A stretch of DNA of 64,000 nt from positions 108,215-172,214 of the forward strand of contig CAYFPM010000001.1 in the NCBI GenBank assembly GCA_964345045.1, in the 5' to 3' direction. This document shows, piece by piece, positions 1,215-58,591 of the stretch. The position numbers and the translations under genes were made by a program. A model generated the notes under the pieces. The model was given only the letters and a program-made list of their open reading frames with translations, did no database searches and had not been told where the DNA came from. The DNA is from an uncultured Gammaproteobacteria bacterium. Its GTDB lineage: Bacteria > Patescibacteriota > Patescibacteriia > Magasanikbacterales > UBA922. Position 1 is the stretch's first letter; the number at the start of each line of letters is the position of its first letter.

Positions 1215-1405
1215 AGGATTATAGAGGCTAGAAAGGCTGGAGAGGCTATATATGCCCAAACAGCTTATTTACACTTTGATATAAATTATGAATGCATATA
1301 TAATATGCAAATACAGTGAAGCGATTATATATTGTAAACGCTGACTTGTCAAGTGTAAGCCTCTCAAGCCTCTTTGGCTGCTTTAGCTTCTTAAGCCTTT
1401 TTCTC

Positions 1406-2026: not shown

Positions 2027-2065
2027 TTTTGACGCATGACACTTGAAACTTGACACAATTTTGTC

Positions 2066-2110
2066 TAATCAAAAAAAGCCTACTTATGTAAGCTTTTTTT
2101 GATTGATTTC
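2066..2110. repeat. AT-rich hairpin repeat/terminator copy 1 (AATCAAAAAAAGCCTACTTATGTAAGCTTTTTTTGATTG)
   Basis: Near-identical copies at 2494-2540 and 3089-3135. Stem is AAAAAAAGC/GCTTTTTTT. Confidence 0.8.
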
Positions 2111-2132
2111 GATGGGGCATGCTTGCTTATCT

Positions 2133-2441
2133 CTAGAGCTCTGTGAGGCGCCTTTGGATCTCTTCTAGTAGCAAGCGTGCTTTGCTGAAGTTGTAGCCGT
2201 GTGTTCTGGCAGCCTTTCGCGCCTTGTCGCTATTTGGATCACCTGCTATTGCGGCTTCGTAGCTAACTCCGGCAACCAGCGATGTTGTAGCTAGCTCACT
2301 AACCATGGCAGACAAGCTCATGGTTGAAAGTTGCCCTGGCACTTCTTGCTGGGCAGCTGCTGTGCCTGTGGTGTAGAAGTCACCTCTTAGGTATTCCAGA
2401 TCAGTTGAGTCTTGTTCAAAATCATCGGGCAATAGTCCCAT
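2133..2441 (-). CDS. Hypothetical protein (about 50% GC, strong AAGGAG RBS); island gene
   Basis: ORF with AAGGAG 7 nt upstream of the ATG. GC is far above the native background. No recognisable domain. Confidence 0.45.
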   Translation of the reverse strand: MGLLPDDFEQDSTDLEYLRGDFYTTGTAAAQQEVPGQLSTMSLSAMVSELATTSLVAGVSYEAAIAGDPNSDKARKAARTHGYNFSKARLLLEEIQRRLTEL

Positions 2442-2493
2442 CGAAAGATCTCCTTGTTTTTAAACTAGTTTTTTTGTACTTTTTTGTCAAATA

Positions 2494-2540
2494 TCAAAAA
2501 ACAAAAAAAGCCTACTTATGTAAGCTTTTTTTGATTGGGG
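2494..2540. repeat. AT-rich hairpin repeat/terminator copy 2
   Basis: Same 36-nt core as 2070-2105. Confidence 0.8.
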
Positions 2541-2569
2541 TCGATTGTCGAGTTTGTTATTCAGGCGAG

Positions 2570-3046
2570 TCATCGACCATCTCCTTCTACTCCTTTATCT
2601 GTTTCAAACAGATTCCAGTACCTATCAATAAGAGCGGTTCTGTCGGCTACCCCCAATTCACGGCAAAGTTTTCTGACATGATACTTGATAGTTCTAGTTT
2701 TCACGTTAGGGACAAGTTGCTCAGCTATCTCTCTGTTTGAGAGTCCTTCTGCTAGTAGAGTCCAGACTTCCATCTGTCTTTTTGATATGGATTCTGGTTT
2801 GGGGTTTTTTGGTTTTTGATCCGAGCATCTTTTGTGTCTGGCAATCAAATCGTAGGATGTAGAGCAGCCCTTCACTTTTTTTAGGATATTTTGGATATGA
2901 AATTTGACTGTTCTTGGGTTGAGACCCAGTTGATCAGCTATTTCTTGGTTGGTGGGCTTTTTGCTTGGAGAAGTGAGTAGGTCGTAGACCTGCCTCTGCA
3001 TACGAGTGAGACCAAGAGGGTCTTTTTTTGTATGTATGTTTGCCAT
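2570..3046 (-). CDS. Transcriptional regulator with two tandem LuxR/GerE-type HTH domains
   Basis: Two repeats of the L(T/S)xRExEVxxLLAxGxSNxEIAxQLxxSxxTVKxHxxNIxxKL pattern (residues about 15-65 and 90-145). Confidence 0.6.
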   Translation of the reverse strand: MANIHTKKDPLGLTRMQRQVYDLLTSPSKKPTNQEIADQLGLNPRTVKFHIQNILKKVKGCSTSYDLIARHKRCSDQKPKNPKPESISKRQMEVWTLLAEGLSNREIAEQLVPNVKTRTIKYHVRKLCRELGVADRTALIDRYWNLFETDKGVEGDGR

Positions 3047-3088
3047 TACACAAATATAAAAGCATATTTTTTTATTTAAATCAAGCTT

Positions 3089-3135
3089 TGAGAATCAAAA
3101 AAAGCCTACGTATGTAAGCTTTTTTTGATTGGGGC
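3089..3135. repeat. AT-rich hairpin repeat/terminator copy 3
   Basis: Same core with one substitution (CTACGTATG). Confidence 0.8.
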
Positions 3136-3214
3136 CGAGTTGTGTGTTCTGTCACTTCTCGGCAGAGGTTCTCCTTTCTTTGCGTCGGTTCTGAGCGGGG
3201 GCGTCAGCTTCCGA

Positions 3215-3934
3215 TCAGCCCTCGACGTCGAGGTAGCTGGGTTCGTCCTGCCCGGGGCGCGAGCGCGAGAAGAGCCAATCGATGCAGGGCTTGATGGCGC
3301 CCACCATCTTGGCTTCATCGAGCTGTCCCATGAAGCTGGGAATGCGGAACGAATACCCCGGCATAGGCAGACGAGAATCCGTAGTATTGTAGTTCCGTTC
3401 TTGCGTGGTGTTCAAGAGACCTGCCGTCCGAAATGAGTTCGCTCCTGGAGCAGACGCGAGCCCAATACGACCAAGGGGGCTACGGTGGGCCGTCTTTTTG
3501 ATCGCTTTGTGCTCCCATTTGAATTTGGCGACGAAGCGAATGTCTCGTTCGTCAATGGCGGAGTGTTGGATCGAGAGATCCACATTGTCCCAGTCGATGA
3601 GATCTCCAGCCGACTGGAGAGAGTCTGCTCCTTGATCGGCGGGGGTGCTTTCGGTTCCCACGGTGTAGAGGACTTTTCGACCATCCTCCATGAGCGAGAC
3701 CCTCACCCCCTTCTTGAGGGGGATCTGGGTTGTTGCCGAGAGGTGGTATTTCGGAGTCTCCTTGGTCGCGGTGACCAAGATCGCGCGGCCGTTATCGGCC
3801 GGGGACACCTGGATGTTTCCTTCCGGGATGTCCGCGAAGACGGTGATTTTCTCTCGGCACTGGTCGGCCGCCATCGAGGTGGTCGGGCTGAAGATGAATA
3901 GGCTCAAAAGAGCCAAAATCAGGCTACGATACAT
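3215..3934 (-). CDS. Secreted hypothetical protein (signal peptide; about 60% GC; AAGGAG RBS)
   Basis: N-terminal MYRSLILALLSLFIFSPTTSMA signal peptide. Strong SD is present. GC is far above the flanking DNA. Confidence 0.55.
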   Translation of the reverse strand: MYRSLILALLSLFIFSPTTSMAADQCREKITVFADIPEGNIQVSPADNGRAILVTATKETPKYHLSATTQIPLKKGVRVSLMEDGRKVLYTVGTESTPADQGADSLQSAGDLIDWDNVDLSIQHSAIDERDIRFVAKFKWEHKAIKKTAHRSPLGRIGLASAPGANSFRTAGLLNTTQERNYNTTDSRLPMPGYSFRIPSFMGQLDEAKMVGAIKPCIDWLFSRSRPGQDEPSYLDVEG

Positions 3935-4032: not shown

Positions 4033-4077
4033 TGTCAACCTCTATTGACAAAAAAAAGTATATATAGTAGAGTGTAG
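4033..4077. promoter_or_regulatory. Divergent sigma70-like promoters with back-to-back -35 boxes (TTGTCAACCTCTATTGACAA); plus-strand TTGACA-N18-TAGAGT
   Basis: Palindromic paired TTGACA hexamers. A TATATT -10 lies on the minus strand about 17 nt from its -35. Confidence 0.45.
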
Positions 4078-4215
4078 CCAATCTATTGGGGTTGCTTTGC
4101 AAGCCCTAGAACGGAGTATCCAATCTGTATCATTAAAAAATGCTATAGAATTGGAGAAGTGCCTCGGGTCAGTCCTGGGAGACACGTTCGAGAATTCTTC
4201 TACAAAAAAGATTTT

Positions 4216-4245
4216 CGAGCCTCCGTACCAACGGAGATTTTTATT
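4216..4245 (+). terminator. Intrinsic terminator/attenuator hairpin (CTCCGTACCAACGGAG + ATTTTTATTT) in the rpsL upstream region
   Basis: 6-bp GC stem with a 4-nt loop followed by a T-rich tract. Confidence 0.45.
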
Positions 4246-4249
4246 TATT

Positions 4250-4337
4250 AAAGAAGCTGTAGAAGCCAGAAAGGCCAGAGAGGCTAGAATGCCTCTTAAG
4301 CCTCTTAAGCTTCTTAAGCCTCCCAAGCTTTTAATAT
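4250..4337 (+). promoter_or_regulatory. 95-bp periodic (9-nt) leader element abutting the rpsL start codon; copy 1
   Basis: AAGAAGCTGTAGAAGCCAGAAAG GCCAGAGAG GCTAGAATG CCTCTTAAG CCTCTTAAG CTTCTTAAG CCTCCCAAG CTTTTAATAT-ATG. About 90% identical to 4748-4843. Confidence 0.7.
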
Positions 4338-4757
4338 ATGCCAACAATGAATCAGGTGTTGCGCAAGGGCAGAAAGAAAAAGACTACCAAGTCAAAATCT
4401 CCTGCCATGCAATTCACCTACGACAGTTTGCACCGCAAGAAAACAGACTTGCGTAGAGGTGCTCCATTCAAAAGAGGTGTTTGTATCAAGGTAACAACCA
4501 AAACACCAAAAAAACCTAACTCTGCGTTGCGTAAGGTAGCTCGTGTCAGACTATCTAACGGAACCGAAGTTTGGGCTTATATCCCAGGTGAAGGACATGG
4601 ATTGCAAGAACACTCTGTAGTTCTAATCCGTGGAGGAAAAGTAAAAGACCTTCCAGGTGTAAAATATCATGTGGTTCGCGGTGTGTACGACACAACCGGA
4701 GTCGAGAATCGCAAACGTAGCCGTTCACTATACGGAACTAAGAAACCTAAATCATAA
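4338..4757 (+). CDS. rpsL: 30S ribosomal protein S12
   Basis: [14 protein letters not shown]...[11 protein letters not shown]...[25 protein letters not shown]. Canonical S12. Confidence 0.95.
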
Positions 4758-4843
4758 AGAAGCTGTAGAAGCCAGAAAGGCTAGAGAGGCTAAAAAGCCT
4801 CCTAAGCTTCTCAGGCCTCTTAAGCCTCTCAAGCTTTTAAAGT
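4748..4843 (+). promoter_or_regulatory. 95-bp periodic leader element abutting the rpsG start codon; copy 2
   Basis: Direct repeat of 4250-4337, ending AAGCTTTTAAAGT-ATGCCAAG. Confidence 0.7.
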
Positions 4844-5329
4844 ATGCCAAGAGGAAAAAGAATTCCGAAACGTGTAGTTTCTCCAGATTCAAGATACAAC
4901 AGTGTGCTTGTTTCCAAGTTCATTAATTTTGTAATGGAAAGAGGTAAAAAAACTGTAGCCGAAAAAATAGTGTACGGTGCTTTTGAAAAACTTGCCGAAA
5001 AGAAAAAAGGCGACGCTATTAAACTATTTGAACAAGTATTAGACATAATTAGACCACAAGTAGAGGTACGCTCTCGTAGAGTTGGTGGTGCCAACTACCA
5101 AGTACCTATGCCAGTAGCCAGTCATCGCCAAAACGCTTTGGCTTTTCGTTGGCTAGTAGGTGCTGCCAAAGCCAGAAGTGGCAAAACCATGCAAGACAAA
5201 CTAGCTATGGAAATGATGGATGTACTAGAAGGAACCGGTGGAGCTGTAAAGAAAAAAGAAGACGTCATTCGTATGGCCGAGGCCAACAAAGCCTTTGCCC
5301 ACTTCGCCAGATTTGGTGGCAGAAGATAA
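4844..5329 (+). CDS. rpsG: 30S ribosomal protein S7
   Basis: MPRGKRIPKRVV...VEVRSRRVGGANYQVP...AFAHF. Canonical S7. Confidence 0.95.
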   Translation: MPRGKRIPKRVVSPDSRYNSVLVSKFINFVMERGKKTVAEKIVYGAFEKLAEKKKGDAIKLFEQVLDIIRPQVEVRSRRVGGANYQVPMPVASHRQNALAFRWLVGAAKARSGKTMQDKLAMEMMDVLEGTGGAVKKKEDVIRMAEANKAFAHFARFGGRR

Positions 5330-5335
5330 TTAATA

Positions 5336-5427
5336 ATTAGTTCATCGCCAATAGCCAATAGTTAATAGTTATTAGATATAACTAAAACAAACGATTGGCT
5401 ATGAACGATGAACGATGAACTATTTAT
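5336..5427. repeat. Palindromic 90-nt intergenic element (AGTTCATCGCCAATAGCCAATAG ... ATTGGCTATGAACGATGAACT), family copy 1 of 4
   Basis: Long imperfect inverted repeat. Related copies at 24352-24458, 27318-27415 and 28912-28984. Confidence 0.75.
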
Positions 5428-7503: not shown

Positions 7504-7535
7504 AATAAGCAGAGTAAGTAGTAAGCAGAGTAAGT

Positions 7536-7567
7536 AAACCCAGCTCAGAGAGGAGCTGGGTTTTTGG
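7536..7567 (+). terminator. Intrinsic terminator after fusA
   Basis: ACCCAGCTC-AGAGAGG-AGCTGGGT followed by TTTTT. Confidence 0.7.
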
Positions 7568-15188: not shown

Positions 15189-15935
15189 ATGAAATTCAAT
15201 ATCATCACAATTTTTCCAGATATAATTTCCAATTACGCCGGTGAAACTATTCTTGGTCGTGCTCAAAAAAATAATTTGATAAAAGTAAATCCAATTAACT
15301 TGCGTGACTTTACAGAAGACGCTAGGAAGACAGTTGACGATACTCCCTATGGTGGGGGAGCCGGCATGGTAATGAAATCAGAACCTATTTATAAGGCACT
15401 CAAATCAATCGATGCCATTCCCTTTGCCAAAGTAGATGGACTTTCCAAAGTCAAAAAAGTTTTTGATGGTAGTTTAAAAAAGAAAAAAAAGACTGTCTTA
15501 CTTTCTCCACGTGGCAAACAATTTGACCAACGTATGGCCGAGAAATTTAGTCAGTTAGACGAGTTAACTTTTGTTTGTGGTAGATACGAAGGGGTAGATG
15601 CTCGAGTTTCTCATTATATGGTAGACGAAGAAGTGTCTATAGGGCCATATGTATTGGCTGGTGGAGAACTGGGTGCTTTGGTAATGATAGAGGCTGTGTC
15701 TAGATTAGTTCCAGGAGTTTTGGGTAATAAAGAATCTTTGGCTGAAGAAACATTCATTGCCAATGGTTCATCGCCAATGGTATCCGATGAACCATTGGCT
15801 ACTGGCCATGAACTATTTGTAGAGTACGATCAGTATACAAAACCAGTCGATTTCAAGGGGTGGAAAGTGCCAGATGTACTCCTTTCTGGAGATCACAAAA
15901 AGATAGAAGAATGGAGGAAGGGCAAGGACATATAG
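15189..15935 (+). CDS. trmD: tRNA (guanine37-N1)-methyltransferase
   Basis: MKFNIITIFPD...LGRAQ...DDTPYGGGAGMVMK..., the TrmD SPOUT signature. The start was chosen at the conserved MKF rather than the upstream ORF start. Confidence 0.85.
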   Translation: MKFNIITIFPDIISNYAGETILGRAQKNNLIKVNPINLRDFTEDARKTVDDTPYGGGAGMVMKSEPIYKALKSIDAIPFAKVDGLSKVKKVFDGSLKKKKKTVLLSPRGKQFDQRMAEKFSQLDELTFVCGRYEGVDARVSHYMVDEEVSIGPYVLAGGELGALVMIEAVSRLVPGVLGNKESLAEETFIANGSSPMVSDEPLATGHELFVEYDQYTKPVDFKGWKVPDVLLSGDHKKIEEWRKGKDI

Positions 15936-16328: not shown

Positions 16329-17822
16329 TTCATTGAGAGTTTGATCCTGGCTCAGGATGAACGTTGGCGGCGTGTCTAAGGCATGCAAGTCGAGCGACGG
16401 ACCCACTTCGGTGGGGGACCGAGCGGCAAACGGGTGAGTAACACATTGGTAACCTACCTCCGAGACGAGAATAGCTCATCGAAAGATGAATTAATACTCG
16501 ATAGTCATGAGGGGACGAAAGTCATTCTCATGTAAACCTCCGGGGCTCGGAGAGGGGCCTATGTCTGATTAGCTTGTTGGTAGGGTAAAAGCCTACCAAG
16601 GCGATGATCAGTAGCAGGCGTGAGAGCGTGACCTGCCTCACTGGGACTGAGACACTGCCCAGACTCCTACGGGAGGCTGCAGTCAAGAATATTCCGCAAT
16701 GGACGAAAGTCTGACGGAGCGACGCCGCGTGCAGGAAGACGCCCTTCGGGGTGTAAACTGCTTTTATTAGGGAAGAATTTGTGACGGTACCTAATGAATA
16801 AGAGGTTGCTAACTCTGTGCCAGCAGCAGCGGTAATACAGAGACCTCAAACGTTATCCGGATTTATTGGGCGTAAAGCGTCCGCAGGTTGTTTGGGAAGT
16901 CAGCGGTCAAATCTTCGGGCTTAACTCGAAGACTGCTACTGATACTCCCAGACTAGAGGCTGGAAGAGGCAAGCGGAATTTTCGGTGTAGTCGTAATAAG
17001 CGCTGATATCGAAAAGAACACCAAAGGCGAAGGCAGCTTGCTGGTACATGCCTGACACTCATGGACGAAAGCGTGGGTAGCGAATGGGATTAGATACCCC
17101 AGTAGTCCACGCCCTAAACGATGTCTACTAGGTATTGGAAGTATCGACCCTTTCAGTGCCGTTTAAAAAAGCTAACGCGTTAAGTAGACCGCCTGTGTAG
17201 TACGGCCGCAAGGCTAAAACATAAAGGAATAGACGGGGACCCGCACAAGCGGTGGATCATGCGGTTTAATTCGATGATACGCGGCGAACCTCACCCAGAC
17301 TTGACATGTAACTGCAAGCTCCTAGAAATAGGAGCCGCCTTCGAGGGTGTTACACAGGTGCTGCATGGTTGCCGTCAGCTCGTGCCGTGAGGTGTACCCT
17401 TAAGTGGGGTAACGAGCGCAACCCTCGTCTTGTGTTACATTGTACACAAGAGACTGCCCGGGCAACCGGGAGGAAGGTGAGGACGACGTCAAATCAGCAT
17501 GGCTCTTACGCCTTGGGCGACACACATGATACAATGGCCAGTACAACAGGTTGCCAACCCGCGAGGGGGAGCTAATCCTATAAAGCTGGTCTCAGTTCGG
17601 ATTGCAGGCTGCAACTCGCCTGCATGAAGTTGGAATCGCTAGTAAACGCGCATCAGCCACGGCGCGTTGAATACGTTCTCGGGTCTTGTACTCACCGCCC
17701 GTCACACCACGAAAGCTGGGGGCACCCGAAGGCTCTTTACGGGGACGAAGGTGAAACCAGTGATCAGGGTGAAGTCGTAACAAGGCATCCGTAGCGGAAG
17801 CTGTGGATGGATCACCTCCTTT
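16329..17822 (+). rRNA. rrs: 16S ribosomal RNA (complete, solitary)
   Basis: 5' AGAGTTTGATCCTGGCTCAG. Internal universal blocks GTGCCAGCAGCAGCGGTAATAC and GGATTAGATACCC. 3' end GGATCACCTCCTTT. No 23S follows. Confidence 0.95.
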
Positions 17823-19617: not shown

Positions 19618-20808
19618 ATGGCCGATTTTGATCGTTCCAAGGCTCACGTTAATGTGGGTACTATTGGTCACGTAGACCATGGAAAAACAACTACAACAGC
19701 TGCTATCTTGAAGGTAGCTGCCGCTGCTGGTTTGACTGCTCAAACCAAAGACGTAGACGCTATCGACTCTGCTCCAGAAGAGAAGCAACGTGGTATTACC
19801 ATTGCTACTGCTCATGTAGAGTACGAAACTGCCAACAGACACTACGCTCACGTAGACTGTCCTGGTCACGCCGATTATGTAAAAAACATGATCACTGGTG
19901 CTGCCCAAATGGATGGTTCTATCCTTGTAGTATCTGCTGCTGATGGTCCTATGCCTCAGACTCGTGAGCACATTTTGCTTGCTCGTCAAGTAGGTGTACC
20001 TTACATCATCGTATTTTTGAACAAAGTTGATCAAGTATCTGATCCAGAACTTATCGACCTAGTAGAAGAAGAAATTCGTGATCTATTGAAGAAATACGAA
20101 TTCCCAGGAGACGAAACTCCAATTATCCGTGGTTCAGCTCTAAAAGCCTTGGAAAACCCAAGTGACGAAGCTGCTGCTAAACCAATTTTGGACCTATTGA
20201 ACACTTTGGATGAATACATCCCAACCCCAGAACGTGATCTAGACAAAGACTTCCTAATGCCTATCGAAGACGTATTTTCTATCGAAGGTCGTGGTACTGT
20301 AGTAACCGGTCGTGTAGAACGTGGTTCTGTAAAAGTTGGTGAAGAAATCGAAATGGTAGGTATGCAAACCGAAACCATGAAAACCACTGTTACAGGTGTA
20401 GAGATGTTTAACAAATCTCTAGATCAAGCTCAAGCTGGTGACAATGCTGGTGTTCTTCTTCGTGGTACTAAGAAAGAAGAAGTACAACGTGGTATGGTGC
20501 TTTCCAAACCAGGTACTATTACTCCACATACCGAATTCGAAGCTGAAATTTACGCTCTTACCAAAGAAGAAGGTGGACGTCACAAACCATTCTTTACTGG
20601 TTACAAACCTCAGTTTTACATCCGTACAACTGACGTAACTGGTGATGTGACTTTGCCAGAAGGTACAGAGATGGTAATGCCAGGAGACACTGTAAACGGT
20701 AAAGTTAAACTTATCGTTCCAGTAGCTATGGAAGAAAAAATGCGTTTCGCTATCCGTGAAGGTGGACGTACAGTAGGAGCTGGTGTTGTAACTAAAATTA
20801 TAAACTAA
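19618..20808 (+). CDS. tuf: Elongation factor Tu
   Basis: [37 protein letters not shown]. Full length, 396 aa. Confidence 0.95.
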
Positions 20809-24348: not shown

Positions 24349-24351
24349 ATT

Positions 24352-24458
24352 ACTAGTTCATAGCCAATAGTTCTTAGTTCATAAGTTGTAAGTATCTAGA
24401 AGATAAACAAATATGAAATAAAGACTATTGGCCGTGAACCAAGAACGATTAACTAAAA
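24352..24458. repeat. Palindromic intergenic element, family copy 2 (AGTTCATAGCCAATAGTTCTTAGTTCAT ... ATTGGCCGTGAACCAAGAACGATTAACT)
   Basis: Inverted-repeat arms. Same family as 5336-5427. Confidence 0.75.
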
Positions 24459-24460
24459 TT

Positions 24461-27317: not shown

Positions 27318-27415
27318 TAGTTCATAGCCAATAGTTCTTAGTTCATAGTGTGTAAGTAAAATATCTATGAAACAAAGACTATTGGCTACGAACCAAGAAC
27401 GATGAACTAATTATA
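27318..27415. repeat. Palindromic intergenic element, family copy 3
   Basis: TAGTTCATAGCCAATAGTTCTTAGTTCATAG...GACTATTGGCTACGAACCAAGAACGATGAACT. Confidence 0.75.
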
Positions 27416-27417
27416 TT

Positions 27418-28911: not shown

Positions 28912-28984
28912 TGGTTCATGGCCAATCGTCCATTGCCATTAATATTTGACGATTGGCGATTGGCTATGAACTAAGAACTACTTT
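28912..28984. repeat. Palindromic intergenic element, family copy 4 (shorter variant)
   Basis: GGTTCATGGCCAATCGTCCATTGCC...ACGATTGGCGATTGGCTATGAACTAAGAACT. Confidence 0.65.
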
Positions 28985-28986
28985 TT

Positions 28987-30992: not shown

Positions 30993-31049
30993 GCAAAAAG
31001 ATATAAGATACAAGCAACAATTTGTATCTTATTATTTATATCTTGTATT

Positions 31050-32330
31050 TTGTTTAGTATGTTGGAAAAATTAAAAAGAATTTGGAAAATAAAAGAATTA
31101 CGAGGCAGCATCTTGTTTGTTCTTGGAATGCTTGTTATCTTCCGTTTGGTAGCTCATATCCCTGTGCCGGGGGTAGATGTAGACAATCTAAGAGCTTTTT
31201 TGGCAGGCAACCAAGTGCTTGGATTACTTAATGTATTTTCTGGTGGGACTATAGAAAATTTTTCTGTAGTCATGCTTGGGATTGCTCCGTATATTACTTC
31301 TTCTATTATTTTTCAGTTGCTTACCATGGTTGTCCCACAGTTAGAAGAGCTAAGTAAAGAAGGTGAGTCTGGTCAGCAAAAAATAAATATGTATACCAGA
31401 TTGGCTACCGTGCCATTGGCTTTGTTACAAGCTTATGCATTTTTGCAACTGTTAAATAATTCTAACGCAGCTATCTTTGGCGGAGTTTCTACTTGGCAGT
31501 TTATTTCCATGGTATTGGTTGTCACTGCCGGTACTGTCTTCCTAATGTGGATTGGAGAGCTTATCACCGAAAGAAAAATTGGTAATGGTATTTCATTGCT
31601 TATCTTTGCTGGTATTATTTCTGCTTTGCCAAGCGCACTTCGTAATGCCATTGTAAACTATAATCCATCGGATCTTTATACTTATATTTTGTTTTTGGTG
31701 ATTGCAATTGCCACTGTAGTAGGTGTTGTAATTATTAGTGAAGGACAAAGAAATATTCCAGTTAGTTATGCCAAACAAGTTCGTGGTGGTAGAGTGCTTG
31801 GTGGCGCTACTACTCATTTGCCACTTCGTGTAAACATGGCTGGAGTTATCCCGATTATCTTTGCGATTTCAATTGTGCTTTTCCCATCTATGGTAGCTCA
31901 ATTTTTTGTAAATGGAACTGGATTTTTGGCTAGGGCTTCTGAGGCGACTATTAATTTGTTTAACAATCAATTGTTTTACGGAGCTACTTATTTTTTGTTA
32001 GTATTTGGTTTTACATATTTCTACACAGCTGTAATTTTCAAACCGGAAAAAATGGCTGAAAATTTGCAACGACAGGGTGGTTTTATTCCAGGTATTAGAC
32101 CAGGCAAAGAAACCGAAGAATACTTGTCTAGAACTATGACCAGATTGGTTTTTGTTGGAGCTTTGTTTTTGGCTATTATTGCTATTTTGCCTCTCTTAAT
32201 GCAGCTTATTACCAATTCTCAAACTTTGGTAGTTGGTGGTACTGGTCTGCTTATCGTGGTGTCTGTGGCTATAGAAACTGCCAAGCAAATTCAAGCACAG
32301 TTGACTGTGCACGAGTACGATAAGATCTAG
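31050..32330 (+). CDS. secY: Preprotein translocase subunit SecY
   Basis: 10-TM topology and conserved ...LGIAPYITSSIIFQLL... block. Confidence 0.95.
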   Translation: MFSMLEKLKRIWKIKELRGSILFVLGMLVIFRLVAHIPVPGVDVDNLRAFLAGNQVLGLLNVFSGGTIENFSVVMLGIAPYITSSIIFQLLTMVVPQLEELSKEGESGQQKINMYTRLATVPLALLQAYAFLQLLNNSNAAIFGGVSTWQFISMVLVVTAGTVFLMWIGELITERKIGNGISLLIFAGIISALPSALRNAIVNYNPSDLYTYILFLVIAIATVVGVVIISEGQRNIPVSYAKQVRGGRVLGGATTHLPLRVNMAGVIPIIFAISIVLFPSMVAQFFVNGTGFLARASEATINLFNNQLFYGATYFLLVFGFTYFYTAVIFKPEKMAENLQRQGGFIPGIRPGKETEEYLSRTMTRLVFVGALFLAIIAILPLLMQLITNSQTLVVGGTGLLIVVSVAIETAKQIQAQLTVHEYDKI

Positions 32331-34532: not shown

Positions 34533-34539
34533 CTTTGAG

Positions 34540-34720
34540 CTGTCATTACGAGGAGTATGAAATAACGACGTAGTAATCTCTGGATAGAAAGTATTAGAGA
34601 TTGCTACGTCGCTGCGCTCTACGACGCAAGGTACGGTCCGATGTTTCAATACGGACTCCGTACCTTGCGTCGGAGAGTCCTTATCGCAAGCATCGGACCT
34701 TGCAATGACAGATATTGTAT
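34540..34720. repeat. MITE-like structured element with TGTCATTRCGAGG terminal inverted repeats and nested hairpins
   Basis: Ends are GCTGTCATTACGAGG ... CCTTGCAATGACAG. Internal inverted repeats CGACGTAGTAATCTCT/AGAGATTGCTACGTCG and GACGCAAGGTACGG/CCGTACCTTGCGTC. A related element with the same termini is at 45545-45700. Confidence 0.65.
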
Positions 34721-35903: not shown

Positions 35904-35904
35904 T

Positions 35905-35985
35905 GTGCGAATTACGAATATTGCGAATTTACGAATTATGTTGTTTTTAAATTCGTATATTCGTACAATTCGTAATTCGTACATA
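35905..35985. repeat. Palindromic CGAATTACGAAT-type intergenic element
   Basis: GCGAATTACGAATATTGCGAATTTACGAATT...AATTCGTATATTCGTACAATTCGTAATTCGTAC. A related fragment is at 56785-56815. Confidence 0.6.
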
Positions 35986-35988
35986 TTT

Positions 35989-40136: not shown

Positions 40137-41213
40137 ATGAAAAAAAAGAAAAAACAAATAAGAGAATTACCAGAAATGTTTTTAGAAAGACTCACAGATA
40201 TGGTGGGTCCTTCTTTGTTTCGACAAGTAAAAGAAACTTTTGTAGAACGGCCAACTACTTTTCGAGTTAATACATTGAAACATTCAAACATACAAACATT
40301 AAAACATGGCTTAGAAAGTCAAGGTTTTAAAATTAGACAAATACCTTGGTACAAGTCAGCGTTTGTTTTATTGAACAAAAGTAAACGAGATCTAACCAAA
40401 ACAGAAGAATACAAAGAAGGTAAGATTTATATTCAGAGTCTGGCGAGTATGGTGCCGCCTATAATTCTTGATCCAAAACCAGGAGATACTGTTTTAGATT
40501 TGACGGCGGCTCCTGGTAGCAAAACTAGCCAGATAGCCGCTCTTATGAATAAAGAAGGTGAATTGGTGGCCAATGATATTAACAAAGTACGTTTTTTTAA
40601 GCTAAAGGCGAATATGGAGAATTTGGGTGTGTCTGACAACTTCTCACCCTATCAGGGGGAGTTAGAGGGGGTCGATCAAAAAAATGAAAGTATTTCTGGG
40701 GATGGACCCCACCCGGCCTCCCCTAATAGGGGAGGAGATTGGGAGTTTACCCTGCGGATGGAGGATGGGGTGAAGCTGTGCAAAGAATATAGTGAGCCTT
40801 ATTTTGATAAAATTTTGTTAGATGCGGTGTGTAGTTCGGAAGCCAGATTTGTAGAGGGTAATCCAAAAACATATGGTTATTGGAAACCGCAAAAAGTAAA
40901 ACAAATGGCTTACATGCAACAAAAATTGTTACTAGCTGCTTGGAATGTGCTAAAGCCTGATGGAGAATTAGTTTATTCTACCTGTACCTGGGCACCAGAA
41001 GAAAATGAATCTAGGATTTCCAAACTTTTGGAAATTCATAGTGATGCCAAAGTAGAAAAAGTTGAAATTAAAGAATTAAAAAAATTACCAGCTGTAATGA
41101 AATGGAAAGATAGAAAGTTTGATAAGTCTGTAAAAGATACTTTAAGAATAATGCCAACCAAAGAAATAGAAGGATTTTTTGTAGCAAAAATTAAAAAGAA
41201 ACGTCTTGATTAA
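40137..41213 (+). CDS. RsmB/RsmF-family (NOL1/NOP2/Sun) RNA m5C methyltransferase carrying an in-frame CCCCT-hairpin repeat insertion (40688-40745)
   Basis: DLTAAPGSKTSQIA (SAM-binding), FDKILLDAVCSSEARF and STCTW catalytic Cys motifs. The inserted segment GDGPHPASPNRGGDWEF is encoded by CCTCCCCTAATAGGGGAGG. Confidence 0.75.
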   Translation: MKKKKKQIRELPEMFLERLTDMVGPSLFRQVKETFVERPTTFRVNTLKHSNIQTLKHGLESQGFKIRQIPWYKSAFVLLNKSKRDLTKTEEYKEGKIYIQSLASMVPPIILDPKPGDTVLDLTAAPGSKTSQIAALMNKEGELVANDINKVRFFKLKANMENLGVSDNFSPYQGELEGVDQKNESISGDGPHPASPNRGGDWEFTLRMEDGVKLCKEYSEPYFDKILLDAVCSSEARFVEGNPKTYGYWKPQKVKQMAYMQQKLLLAAWNVLKPDGELVYSTCTWAPEENESRISKLLEIHSDAKVEKVEIKELKKLPAVMKWKDRKFDKSVKDTLRIMPTKEIEGFFVAKIKKKRLD

Positions 41214-44763: not shown

Positions 44764-44767
44764 AATA

Positions 44768-44822
44768 TATAACACGTAACAAGTAACATTTGTTATATGT
44801 TTTATGTTACAGGTTACATGCT
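44768..44822. repeat. Palindromic GTTACAGGTTACATG-type element (related copy at 1015-1050)
   Basis: ACACGTAACAAGTAACAT...ATGTTACAGGTTACATG. TGTTACAGGCTACATGCT occurs at 1033-1050. Confidence 0.55.
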
Positions 44823-45539: not shown

Positions 45540-45544
45540 AATTT

Positions 45545-45700
45545 GGAAAACAGTAATCCATACCTTAAAATCTAATACTGTCATTGCGAATTTGGCGATA
45601 GCCAGATGAAGCAATCTCACACTTAACTTAATTACTGTGGTGTGAGATTGCCACCCTTCGATTTCGCTCAGGGCAAGCTCGGGCACAACGCTCCTCGCAA
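45545..45700. repeat. MITE-like structured element, second copy of the TGTCATTGCGA...TCGCAATGACAG family
   Basis: ACTGTCATTGCGAATTTGG ... CTCCTCGCAATGACAGTTG termini. Internal GTGTGAGATTG/CAATCTCACAC inverted repeat. Confidence 0.65.
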
Positions 45701-45727
45701 TGACAGTTGTGGTTAATTTATTTAAAT

Positions 45728-49319: not shown

Positions 49320-49378
49320 CCCCGAACATTTGACCATTGACCTCTGACAATTTGTTTTTGTTAAAGGTTAATTGTTAA

Positions 49379-50251: not shown

Positions 50252-50261
50252 GTGTTGATAA

Positions 50262-50405
50262 AATTCCTCCCCTATGAAGGGAGGTTAGCCCGCCTGCATT
50301 GCTTTGCGAAGCATTGCGGGCAGGGTGGGGTCAAATTTTATACCAGACCCTCTCCCCGATGCTTCGATCGGGGCAGGCCAGCTCCCCCTGATAGGGGGAG
50401 AGTTT
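50262..50405. repeat. Composite GC-rich hairpin repeat; 50324-50400 is the inverted copy of 891-967
   Basis: TCCTCCCCTATGAAGGGAGG ... CTCCCCCTGATAGGGGGAG. Reverse-complement identity with 891-967. Confidence 0.8.
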
Positions 50406-50437
50406 TTTAATAAAGCGAAGATTGCCTTGGGGAGGGG

Positions 50438-56753: not shown

Positions 56754-56852
56754 AAATGATAGTAAATAGTAATTAGTAAACGGTAAATTGAGTTATGTAC
56801 GAATTACGAATTGACGAATGATTTTTTTGTTACAACATAGCTTTTAATTTAT

Positions 56853-58484: not shown

Positions 58485-58591
58485 ATTTCTTAAAAAGCTT
58501 ACAATGCCTACAAAGCTCGCAAGGCTATTTTGGGCGGTTATGTATGATTATCATTTAGCTTAGTAAGCCTTGCAGGCCTGGTAAGCTTTTT

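Follow-up and report, generated by a model that had tools for sequence, protein, structure and literature searches.

The 64-kb stretch of DNA analysed here (the window; 39% G+C) contains the ribosomal-protein clusters str, S10 and spc together with an unlinked gene for 16S rRNA. Its S12 has its nearest relatives in Candidatus Magasanikbacteria metagenome-assembled genomes (83-84% identity), which places the genome in the Patescibacteria, and an identical S7 was found on several contigs, one of them of 621 kb. Directly before the str genes rpsL (start codon at 4338) and rpsG (4844) lie two copies, ~88 nt each, of a periodic element. A repeat search and MAFFT alignment returned them as a 96-nt pair (4249-4344 and 4755-4850) with 89% identity, both reading into the ATGCCAA of the downstream gene. 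The pair had been pointed out in an earlier reading of the letters alone (the sequence-only reading), and the duplication was confirmed. That reading took the element for a ribosomal-protein autoregulatory leader or a lineage-specific translation element. The best reading of the present data is that both copies are members of a fast-evolving, dispersed class of short-tandem-repeat palindromes, similar to miniature inverted-repeat transposable elements (MITE), repetitive extragenic palindromic (REP) sequences and Rickettsia palindromic elements (RPE).

Each copy consists of nine 9-nt units in a single continuous register beginning at 4252 or 4758, four of purine type followed by five of pyrimidine type, which corrects an earlier count of three and four. 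The purine-type units of copy 1 occupy 4252-4287 and its pyrimidine-type units 4288-4332, with AATAT last; the series is AGAAGCTGT, AGAAGCCAG, AAAGGCCAG, AGAGGCTAG, AATGCCTCT, TAAGCCTCT, TAAGCTTCT, TAAGCCTCC, CAAGCTTTT, then 5 nt and the ATG. The final unit is CAAGCTTTT in both copies, and 5 nt separate it from the ATG in each. Copy 1 begins, immediately 3' of a terminator-like hairpin, with a TAA equivalent to the stop codon at which copy 2 begins. All units share a quasi-palindromic core, A-R-G-C-Y-T, close to the self-complementary AAGCTT, and the 3-nt spacers between cores are purine-rich (AGA, AG) in the first four units and pyrimidine-rich (TCT, TCC) in the last five. Because the core resembles AAGCTT and the spacers are complementary between the halves, the 9-nt direct array is also a palindrome.

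The 9-nt periodicity was borne out by TRF, which gave period-9 arrays in both arms of both copies, and by the lag-9 autocorrelation (0.70 and 0.67 for copies 1 and 2; neighbouring lags 0.14-0.34), which was as high in none of 5000 shuffles. A weak 18-nt super-period was seen in the 3' arms. The suggested ability to fold back also held: the predicted fold of each copy is an interrupted rod of 29-31 pairs with small internal loops every 2-8 pairs (-35.1 and -35.2 kcal/mol; z = -4.3 and -2.9), and none of 200 shuffles was as stable. As the sequence-only reading had supposed, no described RNA family was recognised; Rfam gave nothing at the gathering threshold and, at E<=10, only eukaryotic microRNA-precursor hairpins, which were regarded as noise.

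The region was 100% identical in two independent metagenome assemblies (L081 and L228; loci used for comparison are cited by such numbers), which excludes an assembly artefact for the two copies. Strain variants with slippage in unit number were sought among contigs with identical S12 or S7, and all of these were 100% identical over the region; the next-closest S7 relative was only ~75% identical. The public gene call on L228 (1004-1414) begins S12 at the second ATG (MNQV..., window position 4347), 9 nt past the conserved MPTMNQV start at 4338, and the upstream repeat element may have misled this start-codon prediction.

The 9-mers recur elsewhere in the window. The dimer pattern AAGCCTCTT had 8 matches against 0.08 expected, and 9-periodic GCYT arrays had 40 against 2.1 expected, all at five gene starts (rpsL, rpsG, pth, rpmB and that of an M50 protease gene; family A, Table 1). 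Its occurrence is thus not limited to rpsL and rpsG. The last 53 nt before the M50 ATG are 70% identical to those before the rpsL ATG in an ungapped, ATG-anchored comparison, and the rpsL, rpsG and M50 copies share one register to the ATG with the 5-nt linker. The rpmB and M50 arrays are one-armed, of pyrimidine type, end 5-8 nt before the ATG and have no significant fold (z about -1).

Altogether, the 64 kb contain at least 15 short-tandem-repeat elements in a size class of 60-115 nt. A second family (family B), with 7-nt units of TTCATAG/CCAATAG type, occupies five window loci, four spacers and the trmD gene. Its terminus had 12 matches in the window against 0.9 expected, and the termini GTTCATAGCCAATAG ... 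ATGAAC are common to the five window copies and two further copies in L229. The copy in trmD is in frame and adds ~17 residues (ANGSSPMVSDEPLATGH) to the interdomain linker, as compared with the PDB TrmD structures 8b1n and 8byh, which is evidence of mobility. Insertion into a coding sequence was not seen for family A in the window.

Occupancy of the same junctions was compared in nine Magasanikbacteria loci. EF-G in those tested is 74-78% identical to that of the window, the relatives being about equally distant. Hairpins of 9-mers were found at all three str junctions in L003 (units GCCTACAAA / TTGTAAGCC) and at rpsL/rpsG in L233, which also has 9-mer arrays on both sides of the rpmB/M50 promoters. 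L229 has family B at rpsL/rpsG and rpsG/fusA, and L002 an unrelated hairpin of ACAGAT units. The rpsL/rpsG spacers of L001, L005 and L230/L231 measure 23-34 nt, with no element in L001, L005 and L230, and rpsG/fusA is equally short in L001 and L005. Relatives without the element at rpsL/rpsG, which the sequence-only reading had named beforehand as evidence against its proposal, were thus encountered often. Before rpsL, the empty site of L001 reads TTTTTTATTTATT/CATATATTGTTATG and the filled site of the window reads TTTTTATTTATT, element, ATATATG. L231 has a lone seed unit (ATAGGCCTCTTTTTTTGG) where the window and L233 hold arrays. The empty L001 site and the L231 seed unit suggest that insertion and local expansion both take place.

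Seven 9-mer elements from three genomes were aligned in register, giving 23 pairs of which 8 had changed on both sides, with 90% of cells paired; shuffled and slid controls fell clearly below 90%. The covariation check proposed earlier did yield compensatory unit changes, but these would equally be given by a DNA palindrome homogenised between its arms, and copies within one genome are not independent. A sense RNA hairpin under selection should accumulate G-U pairs on the sense strand, and no such accumulation was seen. The antisense fold was as stable as the sense fold or more so in 13 of 21 elements, and in 6 of 7 elements of family A the difference in its favour was 6-17 kcal/mol, with the reservation that this asymmetry follows strand composition and that copies within a genome are not independent. 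Across elements, fold energies were -25 to -41 kcal/mol on either strand, with stems of 25-34 pairs. The asymmetry gives no support for constraint at the RNA level; it fits a palindrome at the level of the DNA, with a hairpin in the mRNA that is weakened if it is changed at all.

Similar repeats were met outside these loci. L188 (9400-9545) has purely direct 9-mer arrays that end AAGCTTTTAAAAGT-ATG before rplK, and L190 has 9-mers in a 5' untranslated region (UTR). At rpsL/rpsG, spacers made of heptamer or octamer tandem repeats were met in L032 and in L014, a Saccharibacteria locus, and L036 has a ~24-nt direct repeat there. From L188, L014, L032 and L036, all of them Patescibacteria contigs, the phenomenon is wider than one genus. 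A pilot scan of viral contigs (ARGCYTCYY x2.7) gave 26 matches, nearly all of them coding 3-residue repeats, and the pattern was abandoned. The metagenome scan (ARGCYT-N3-AAGCYT-N3-AAGCTTTT) returned 120 stretches, mostly low-complexity AAGCTTTT repeats, of which ~8 were relevant (L131, L134, L136, L174, L188, L190, L214 and L222); its pattern biases any count of orientation.

Every intergenic copy ends ~0-24 nt from a start codon. In the window, all intergenic elements lie upstream of start codons in co-directional or divergent spacers, and none lies in the eight convergent spacers. Measured in 18 intercistronic elements of six genomes, the median distance is 3.5 nt from the stop codon to the beginning of the stem and 8 nt from its end to the ATG. 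The earlier remark that rpsL and rpsG lack a Shine-Dalgarno (SD) sequence was correct, and this lack is a property of the genome and not of the element: an SD core (GGAG/GAGG/AGGA within 20 nt upstream) was found at 8 of 69 genes, the 20-nt upstream region is 73% A+T, and the 16S rRNA 3' end (...GGAUCACCUCCUUUCU) has the normal CCUCC tail. Pairing of the purine arm with that tail was considered and set aside; AGAAAGG is complementary to the 16S 3' end, yet within the stem it is already base-paired, at a distance of 55-85 nt from the ATG. A coding reading was also rejected. The frame is open in both copies (...PLKPLKLLKP...), but the M50 copy has an in-frame stop and the frame is not joined to rpsL or rpsG.

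A separate leader stands upstream of copy 1. A promoter (TTGACA-17-TAGAGT) at 4045-4073 precedes a segment, ~4108-4248, that is conserved in the nine Magasanikbacteria loci and consists in order of RCGGAGUA, a helix P2 of 6-9 bp, GAAG, a hairpin, ACGUUCGAR, a further helix and a terminator with a U-run. MAFFT misaligned the structures of the rpsL leader, and P2 was tabulated by hand and by script; all of its pairs are kept in 9/9 loci despite complete sequence change, position 1 being U-A or A-U and positions 4-6 of mixed types. The organism's own 16S helix 43 (17640-17676; AGUA-A ACGCGC...GCGCGU U-GAAUACGUUC), the S7 binding region, has the same AGUA-helix-GAA...ACGUUC arrangement, and the leader matches the AGUAA/UGAAN motif that Fu et al. 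2013 give for one of two S7 sites proposed in the E. coli mRNA (PMC3616713). In the window and in L229 the 5' ACGGAG is able to pair with the 5' arm of the terminator, which suggests an antiterminator alternative. Rfam had no match for 4108-4248. From its sequence this leader is a candidate S7-responsive transcription attenuator of the str operon, and a likelier one than the 9-mer element, which is apparently inserted between the leader terminator and the rpsL start.

Table 1. Short-tandem-repeat elements of the window, with position, strand and setting
Element	Position	Strand	Setting and composition
Family-A copy 1	4249-4337	+	Between rpsL-leader terminator and rpsL ATG (4338); nine 9-nt units
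Family-A copy 2	4755-4843	+	Entire rpsL/rpsG spacer, from rpsL stop TAA (4755-4757) to 5 nt before rpsG ATG (4844)
One-armed family-A array	1357-1400	+	Pyrimidine-type units in predicted 5' UTR of M50 protease gene (ATG 1406)
One-armed family-A array	1222-1250	-	mRNA sense UAGCCUCUC CAGCCUUUC UAGCCUCUA, 7 nt, rpmB ATG (1214-1212, minus)
Family-A-like 9-mer hairpin	58485-58591	-	Units AGCTTACAA / TTGTAAGCT; occupies der/pth spacer
Family-B heptamer palindrome	5330-5427	+	rpsG/fusA spacer; termini GTTCATCGCCAATAG ... CGATGAAC
Family-B palindrome	24349-24460	+	rplB/rpsS spacer
Family-B palindrome	27318-27417	+	rplN/rplX spacer
Family-B palindrome	28912-28986	+	rpsH/rplF spacer
Family-B palindrome	15753-15812	+	In frame within trmD coding sequence (15189-15935)
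Single-copy tandem-repeat hairpin	30993-31058	+	rplO/secY spacer
Tandem-repeat hairpin	35904-35988	+	ruvX/recO spacer; CGAATTA-type units, -37 to -38 kcal/mol; recO start taken as ATG 35989
Heptamer hairpin	44764-44822	+	TAACAAG / TGTTATA units; before scpA
Tandem-repeat hairpin	49320-49378	+	parA/parB spacer
Two heptamer direct arrays	56754-56852	-	ATAGTAA and TACGAAT (+ strand); spacer of dprA and next gene; no hairpin (-4 kcal/mol)

The elements are multi-copy, evolve fast and in concert, are variably present at orthologous junctions and can land in a gene. They have no tie to ribosomal proteins, as copies also precede the M50 protease gene, pth, scpA, parB, recO and secY. Several hallmarks of MITE, REP and RPE sequences were found among them: five family-A loci, five family-B loci with two more in L229, terminal inverted repeats, filled and empty orthologous sites, and a coding insertion (family B). 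We consider it probable that they are selfish or expanding DNA which the genome tolerates and whose effects at the RNA level are no more than generic. They would spread or expand as selfish or near-neutral DNA, through MITE/REP/RPE-like insertion, local slippage and templating from arm to arm, and would survive only in places where a compact genome poor in SD sequences can bear them, in the few nucleotides that separate a stop codon or terminator from the following start codon. Being presumably co-transcribed with the operon, they would give the mRNA a long interrupted hairpin whose base would set the upstream stop (median 3.5 nt) beside the downstream start (median 8 nt). Any effect would be generic, on mRNA processing, mRNA stability or translational coupling, and would not be autoregulation specific to S7 or S12. 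The closeness to start codons, which had suggested a lineage-specific translation element, is largely expected from selection against insertions elsewhere in a compact genome.

If the elements are selfish, caution is due with conspicuous periodic hairpins before ribosomal-protein genes of the candidate phyla radiation (CPR), which would be dispersed repeats and not operators. The repeats would also create spurious open reading frames (ORFs), such as 967-1194, which hides rpmB, and displace start-codon calls, and even streamlined genomes of 0.6 Mb would hold actively turning-over palindromic repeats able to enter coding sequences.

Several observations weigh against selfish or near-neutral DNA. 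A Pfam scan found no transposase, REP-associated tyrosine transposase (RAYT) or other mobilising gene among the 39 window proteins scanned. The TAA/TTAA at both ends of copies 1 and 2 may be a target-site duplication or an extension of the palindrome (TTAAAG...CTTTTAA), between which the sequence does not distinguish. All intergenic copies abut start codons, with the eight convergent spacers empty; the register to the ATG is unchanged among three family-A copies; the one-armed arrays of the two 5' UTRs have a single orientation in the mRNA sense; and occupied junctions are shared by two genomes in two cases (window and L003; window and L233). The start abutment, ATG register, one-armed orientation and shared junctions could reflect selection for a start-proximal function instead of tolerance, and a hairpin of -35 kcal/mol before essential, highly expressed genes is not obviously neutral. 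A selected role in coupling, processing or initiation is possible, though we would not expect it. If it holds, the elements offer a testable model for the initiation of operon-internal genes in SD-poor bacteria.

One form of such a role, which we regard as rather unlikely, is a selected intercistronic hairpin that spans the whole spacer: the ribosome terminating upstream would melt the base of the stem, free the AU-rich next start and be left beside it, in structure-mediated translational coupling, or the stem would be an RNase III site or a barrier to 3' exonucleases that sets cistron stability. Its stems of 25-34 predicted pairs, nearly flush with stop and start at the medians given for the 18 elements of six genomes, and the retention of pairing by compensatory change agree with this, as does the shortage of SD sequences, so that internal cistrons behind long spacers need another route of initiation. 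Precedents are the structured E. coli rpsL-rpsG spacer, proposed to aid coupled S12-S7 translation (PMC3616713), and the Correia and ERIC elements of mRNAs, where RNase III cuts or RNase E sites become exposed (PMC10969869). Against this, copy 1 has no cistron ahead of it, the rpmB and M50 arrays are one-armed with no significant fold, related genomes lack the elements, one copy lies within trmD, and the sense fold is not favoured over the antisense fold, as a DNA-level palindrome predicts. A broader and more speculative version, to which we give little weight, would make short-tandem-repeat palindromes a selected, lineage-wide answer of Patescibacteria to SD-less internal initiation, in which a terminating ribosome is handed to the next start or an RNase III cut leaves a short unstructured leader; the sequence would turn over by concerted tandem-repeat evolution while architecture and sites are kept. 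In another form, of the kind proposed for the TAACTGA heptamer repeats of Beggiatoaceae, the start-proximal array of pyrimidine-type units would itself be the functional module, a platform on which the ribosome (e.g. S1) or a post-transcriptional regulator lands or binds, with the purine arm, where present, masking it. This we find improbable. The M50 and rpmB arrays do stand 5-8 nt before their ATGs downstream of near-consensus promoters, rpsL, rpsG and M50 are in identical register, L188 has purely direct arrays (before rplK, ending AAGCTTTTAAAAGT-ATG) and L190 has 9-mers in a 5' UTR, and MacGregor 2015 described heptamer repeats a few nucleotides from starts in SD-less contexts and r-protein operons (PMC4679880). 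Against it, other families in these positions differ widely in composition, the family-B 3' arm being GAAC-rich and others U-rich, leaving no common recognisable sequence; the arrays of rpmB and M50 mirror each other and could go back to one event; the pattern search that yielded L188 and L190 required this orientation; and no candidate binding protein was identified.

The role first proposed, an r-protein leader confined to the str operon at which S7 or S12 would act as autoregulator, is very unlikely. Both copies precede str-operon genes and copy 2 lies in the rpsL/rpsG spacer, the site of S7 binding in E. coli, but family members also precede rpmB, the M50 gene and pth, the element is absent in L001, L005 and L230, and unrelated hairpins take its place in L002 and L229. 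The features of S7 sites are also missing: the copies have no AGTAA, TGAA or TTGG, no AGUAA/UGAAN helix and no CCA/UUGGR junction, and their fold is a single rod, while the separate conserved leader at 4108-4248 carries the helix-43-like site. A leader role of the 9-mer element for S12 or S7 is further opposed by the second, like-built family before fusA, rpsS, rplX and rplF and within trmD. The element begins AAAGAAGCU, ends AAGCUUUU and has a weak U-run after the stem, so that an intrinsic terminator or attenuator between cistrons (A-tract, hairpin, UUUU) was also considered. We judge this highly improbable: a terminator scan called neither copy on the + strand, yet called nearby true terminators at 4221-4236 and 7536-7563; the stem base is AU-rich with a U-run of only 4 nt, where an intrinsic terminator has a G+C-rich stem and at least 5 U in 8; family B and the other families have no U-run; and termination within the S10, spc and str operons would leave the essential genes that follow undersupplied. 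Spacers of 9 nt are used by TIGR-Tas systems, which occur in Patescibacteria, and a guide-RNA array of TIGR or CRISPR type would share the 9-nt periodicity and perhaps the weak 18-nt super-period of the 3' arms. Here, however, spacers of variable sequence are absent, every 9-mer has the same core, the elements are scattered within operons, and no Nop-domain protein is encoded in the window. In TIGR arrays two 8-12-nt repeats alternate, separated by variable spacers of 9 nt, and units of 36 nt recur 5-15 times beside a Nop-domain Tas gene (PMC12045711), and we give this explanation almost no credence.

Several other features were recorded in the window. The rpmB gene (L28, MAKKCERCDKGSQ...) lies at 1053-1214 on the minus strand with its start at 1214, hidden by the spurious longer ORF in another frame. 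Between rpmB and M50 (1276-1352) two near-consensus promoters stand face to face, TTGATA-17-TATAAT (+) and TTGACA-17-TATAAT (-); the predicted transcripts overlap by a few 5'-end nucleotides, and the layout is repeated in L233. Three minus-strand genes occupy 2027-3934, between M50 and rpsL. One has a LuxR/GerE helix-turn-helix domain and two have no Pfam match; two of the three have an AAGGAG Shine-Dalgarno, and each is followed by a copy of the terminator ATCAAAAAAAGCCTACKTATGTAAGCTTTTTTTGATTG (about 2070, 2500 and 3105). The M50 gene is directly upstream of rpsL in L001, L005, L229 and L230, for which reason 2027-3934 looks like an inserted island. Right after the fusA stop, a direct 16-nt repeat (TAAGCAGAGTAAGTAG x2, 7504-7536) precedes the strong terminator at 7536-7563; tuf is at 19618, not downstream of fusA, unlike in E. 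coli. The 16S rRNA gene (16329-17822) is solitary, with a terminator-like hairpin at about 17935, and no 23S or 5S rRNA gene was detected in the window.

Other repeats were also present. An 8-nt tandem repeat (ACATTCAA x4.5) at 40272-40307, in the N-terminal domain region of an RsmB/F-like methyltransferase ORF (40137-41213), may be another in-frame repeat insertion or may reflect a mis-called start codon. A different long palindrome in two copies (34533-34720 and 45540-45727; termini CTGTCATTRCGA...TCGCAATGACAG) has no tandem-repeat build. G+C-rich nested palindromes (CTCCCCCTATTAGGGGGAG, CCCCGATCGAAGCATCGGGG) at 886-966 and 50252-50437, in spacers after genes, form a separate repeat family, whose composition departs from that of the genome at large.

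No account of such a class for Patescibacteria/CPR was found in the searchable literature, and the elements were compared with known systems. With Correia/CREE, ERIC, RUP and REP/BIME sequences they share a length of ~60-150 bp, dispersal in many copies as imperfect palindromes with conserved termini, a place in transcribed operon spacers, variable presence between related genomes and predicted mRNA hairpins, which in Correia and ERIC undergo RNase III cleavage or expose RNase E sites (PMC10969869). They differ from these in that the arms are 7- or 9-nt tandem repeats in one continuous register, that family-A units have a self-complementary hexamer core, that one-armed and purely direct versions exist, and that copies abut start codons instead of gene 3' ends; no transposase, RAYT (among the window proteins) or clear target-site duplication was found. 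RPEs, small palindromes of a reduced genome, also insert in frame into protein genes, which are not destroyed by this (PMC10969869). In trmD the family-B copy behaves alike, whereas the present elements are mostly intercistronic with one intragenic copy, encode no conserved peptide and have a tandem-repeat architecture.

The rpsL-rpsG spacer of E. coli, of ~90-100 nt, has extensive structure thought to effect coupled S12-S7 translation, and the S7 sites of Fu et al. 2013 comprise a helix flanked by AGUAA/UGAAN, which mimics the rRNA site, and a three-stem junction with CCA/UUGGR (PMC3616713). Copy 2 (4758-4843) agrees with the E. coli S7-interacting RNA in position and approximate length; unlike it, the element has no three-way junction or S7-site motifs, is not conserved in relatives and recurs at unrelated genes. 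A nearer likeness in placement is given by the TAACTGA heptamers of Beggiatoaceae, Cyanobacteria and Bacteroidetes, which lie a few nucleotides upstream of SD-poor starts, also inside r-protein operons including upstream of fusA, before genes with no functional pattern and with a function that is unproven (PMC4679880). These heptamers, the cyanobacterial STRR repeats and the present elements are all short tandem repeats close to SD-less starts in r-protein operons; here the median distance from stem to ATG is 8 nt, and the family-A linker is 5 nt in three copies. The units here are instead AAGCYTYTY-type 9-mers or TTCATAG/CCAATAG heptamers, in a different phylum (CPR), and whereas TAACTGA repeats are almost all direct, the majority of copies here consist of two inverted arrays and fold into hairpins.

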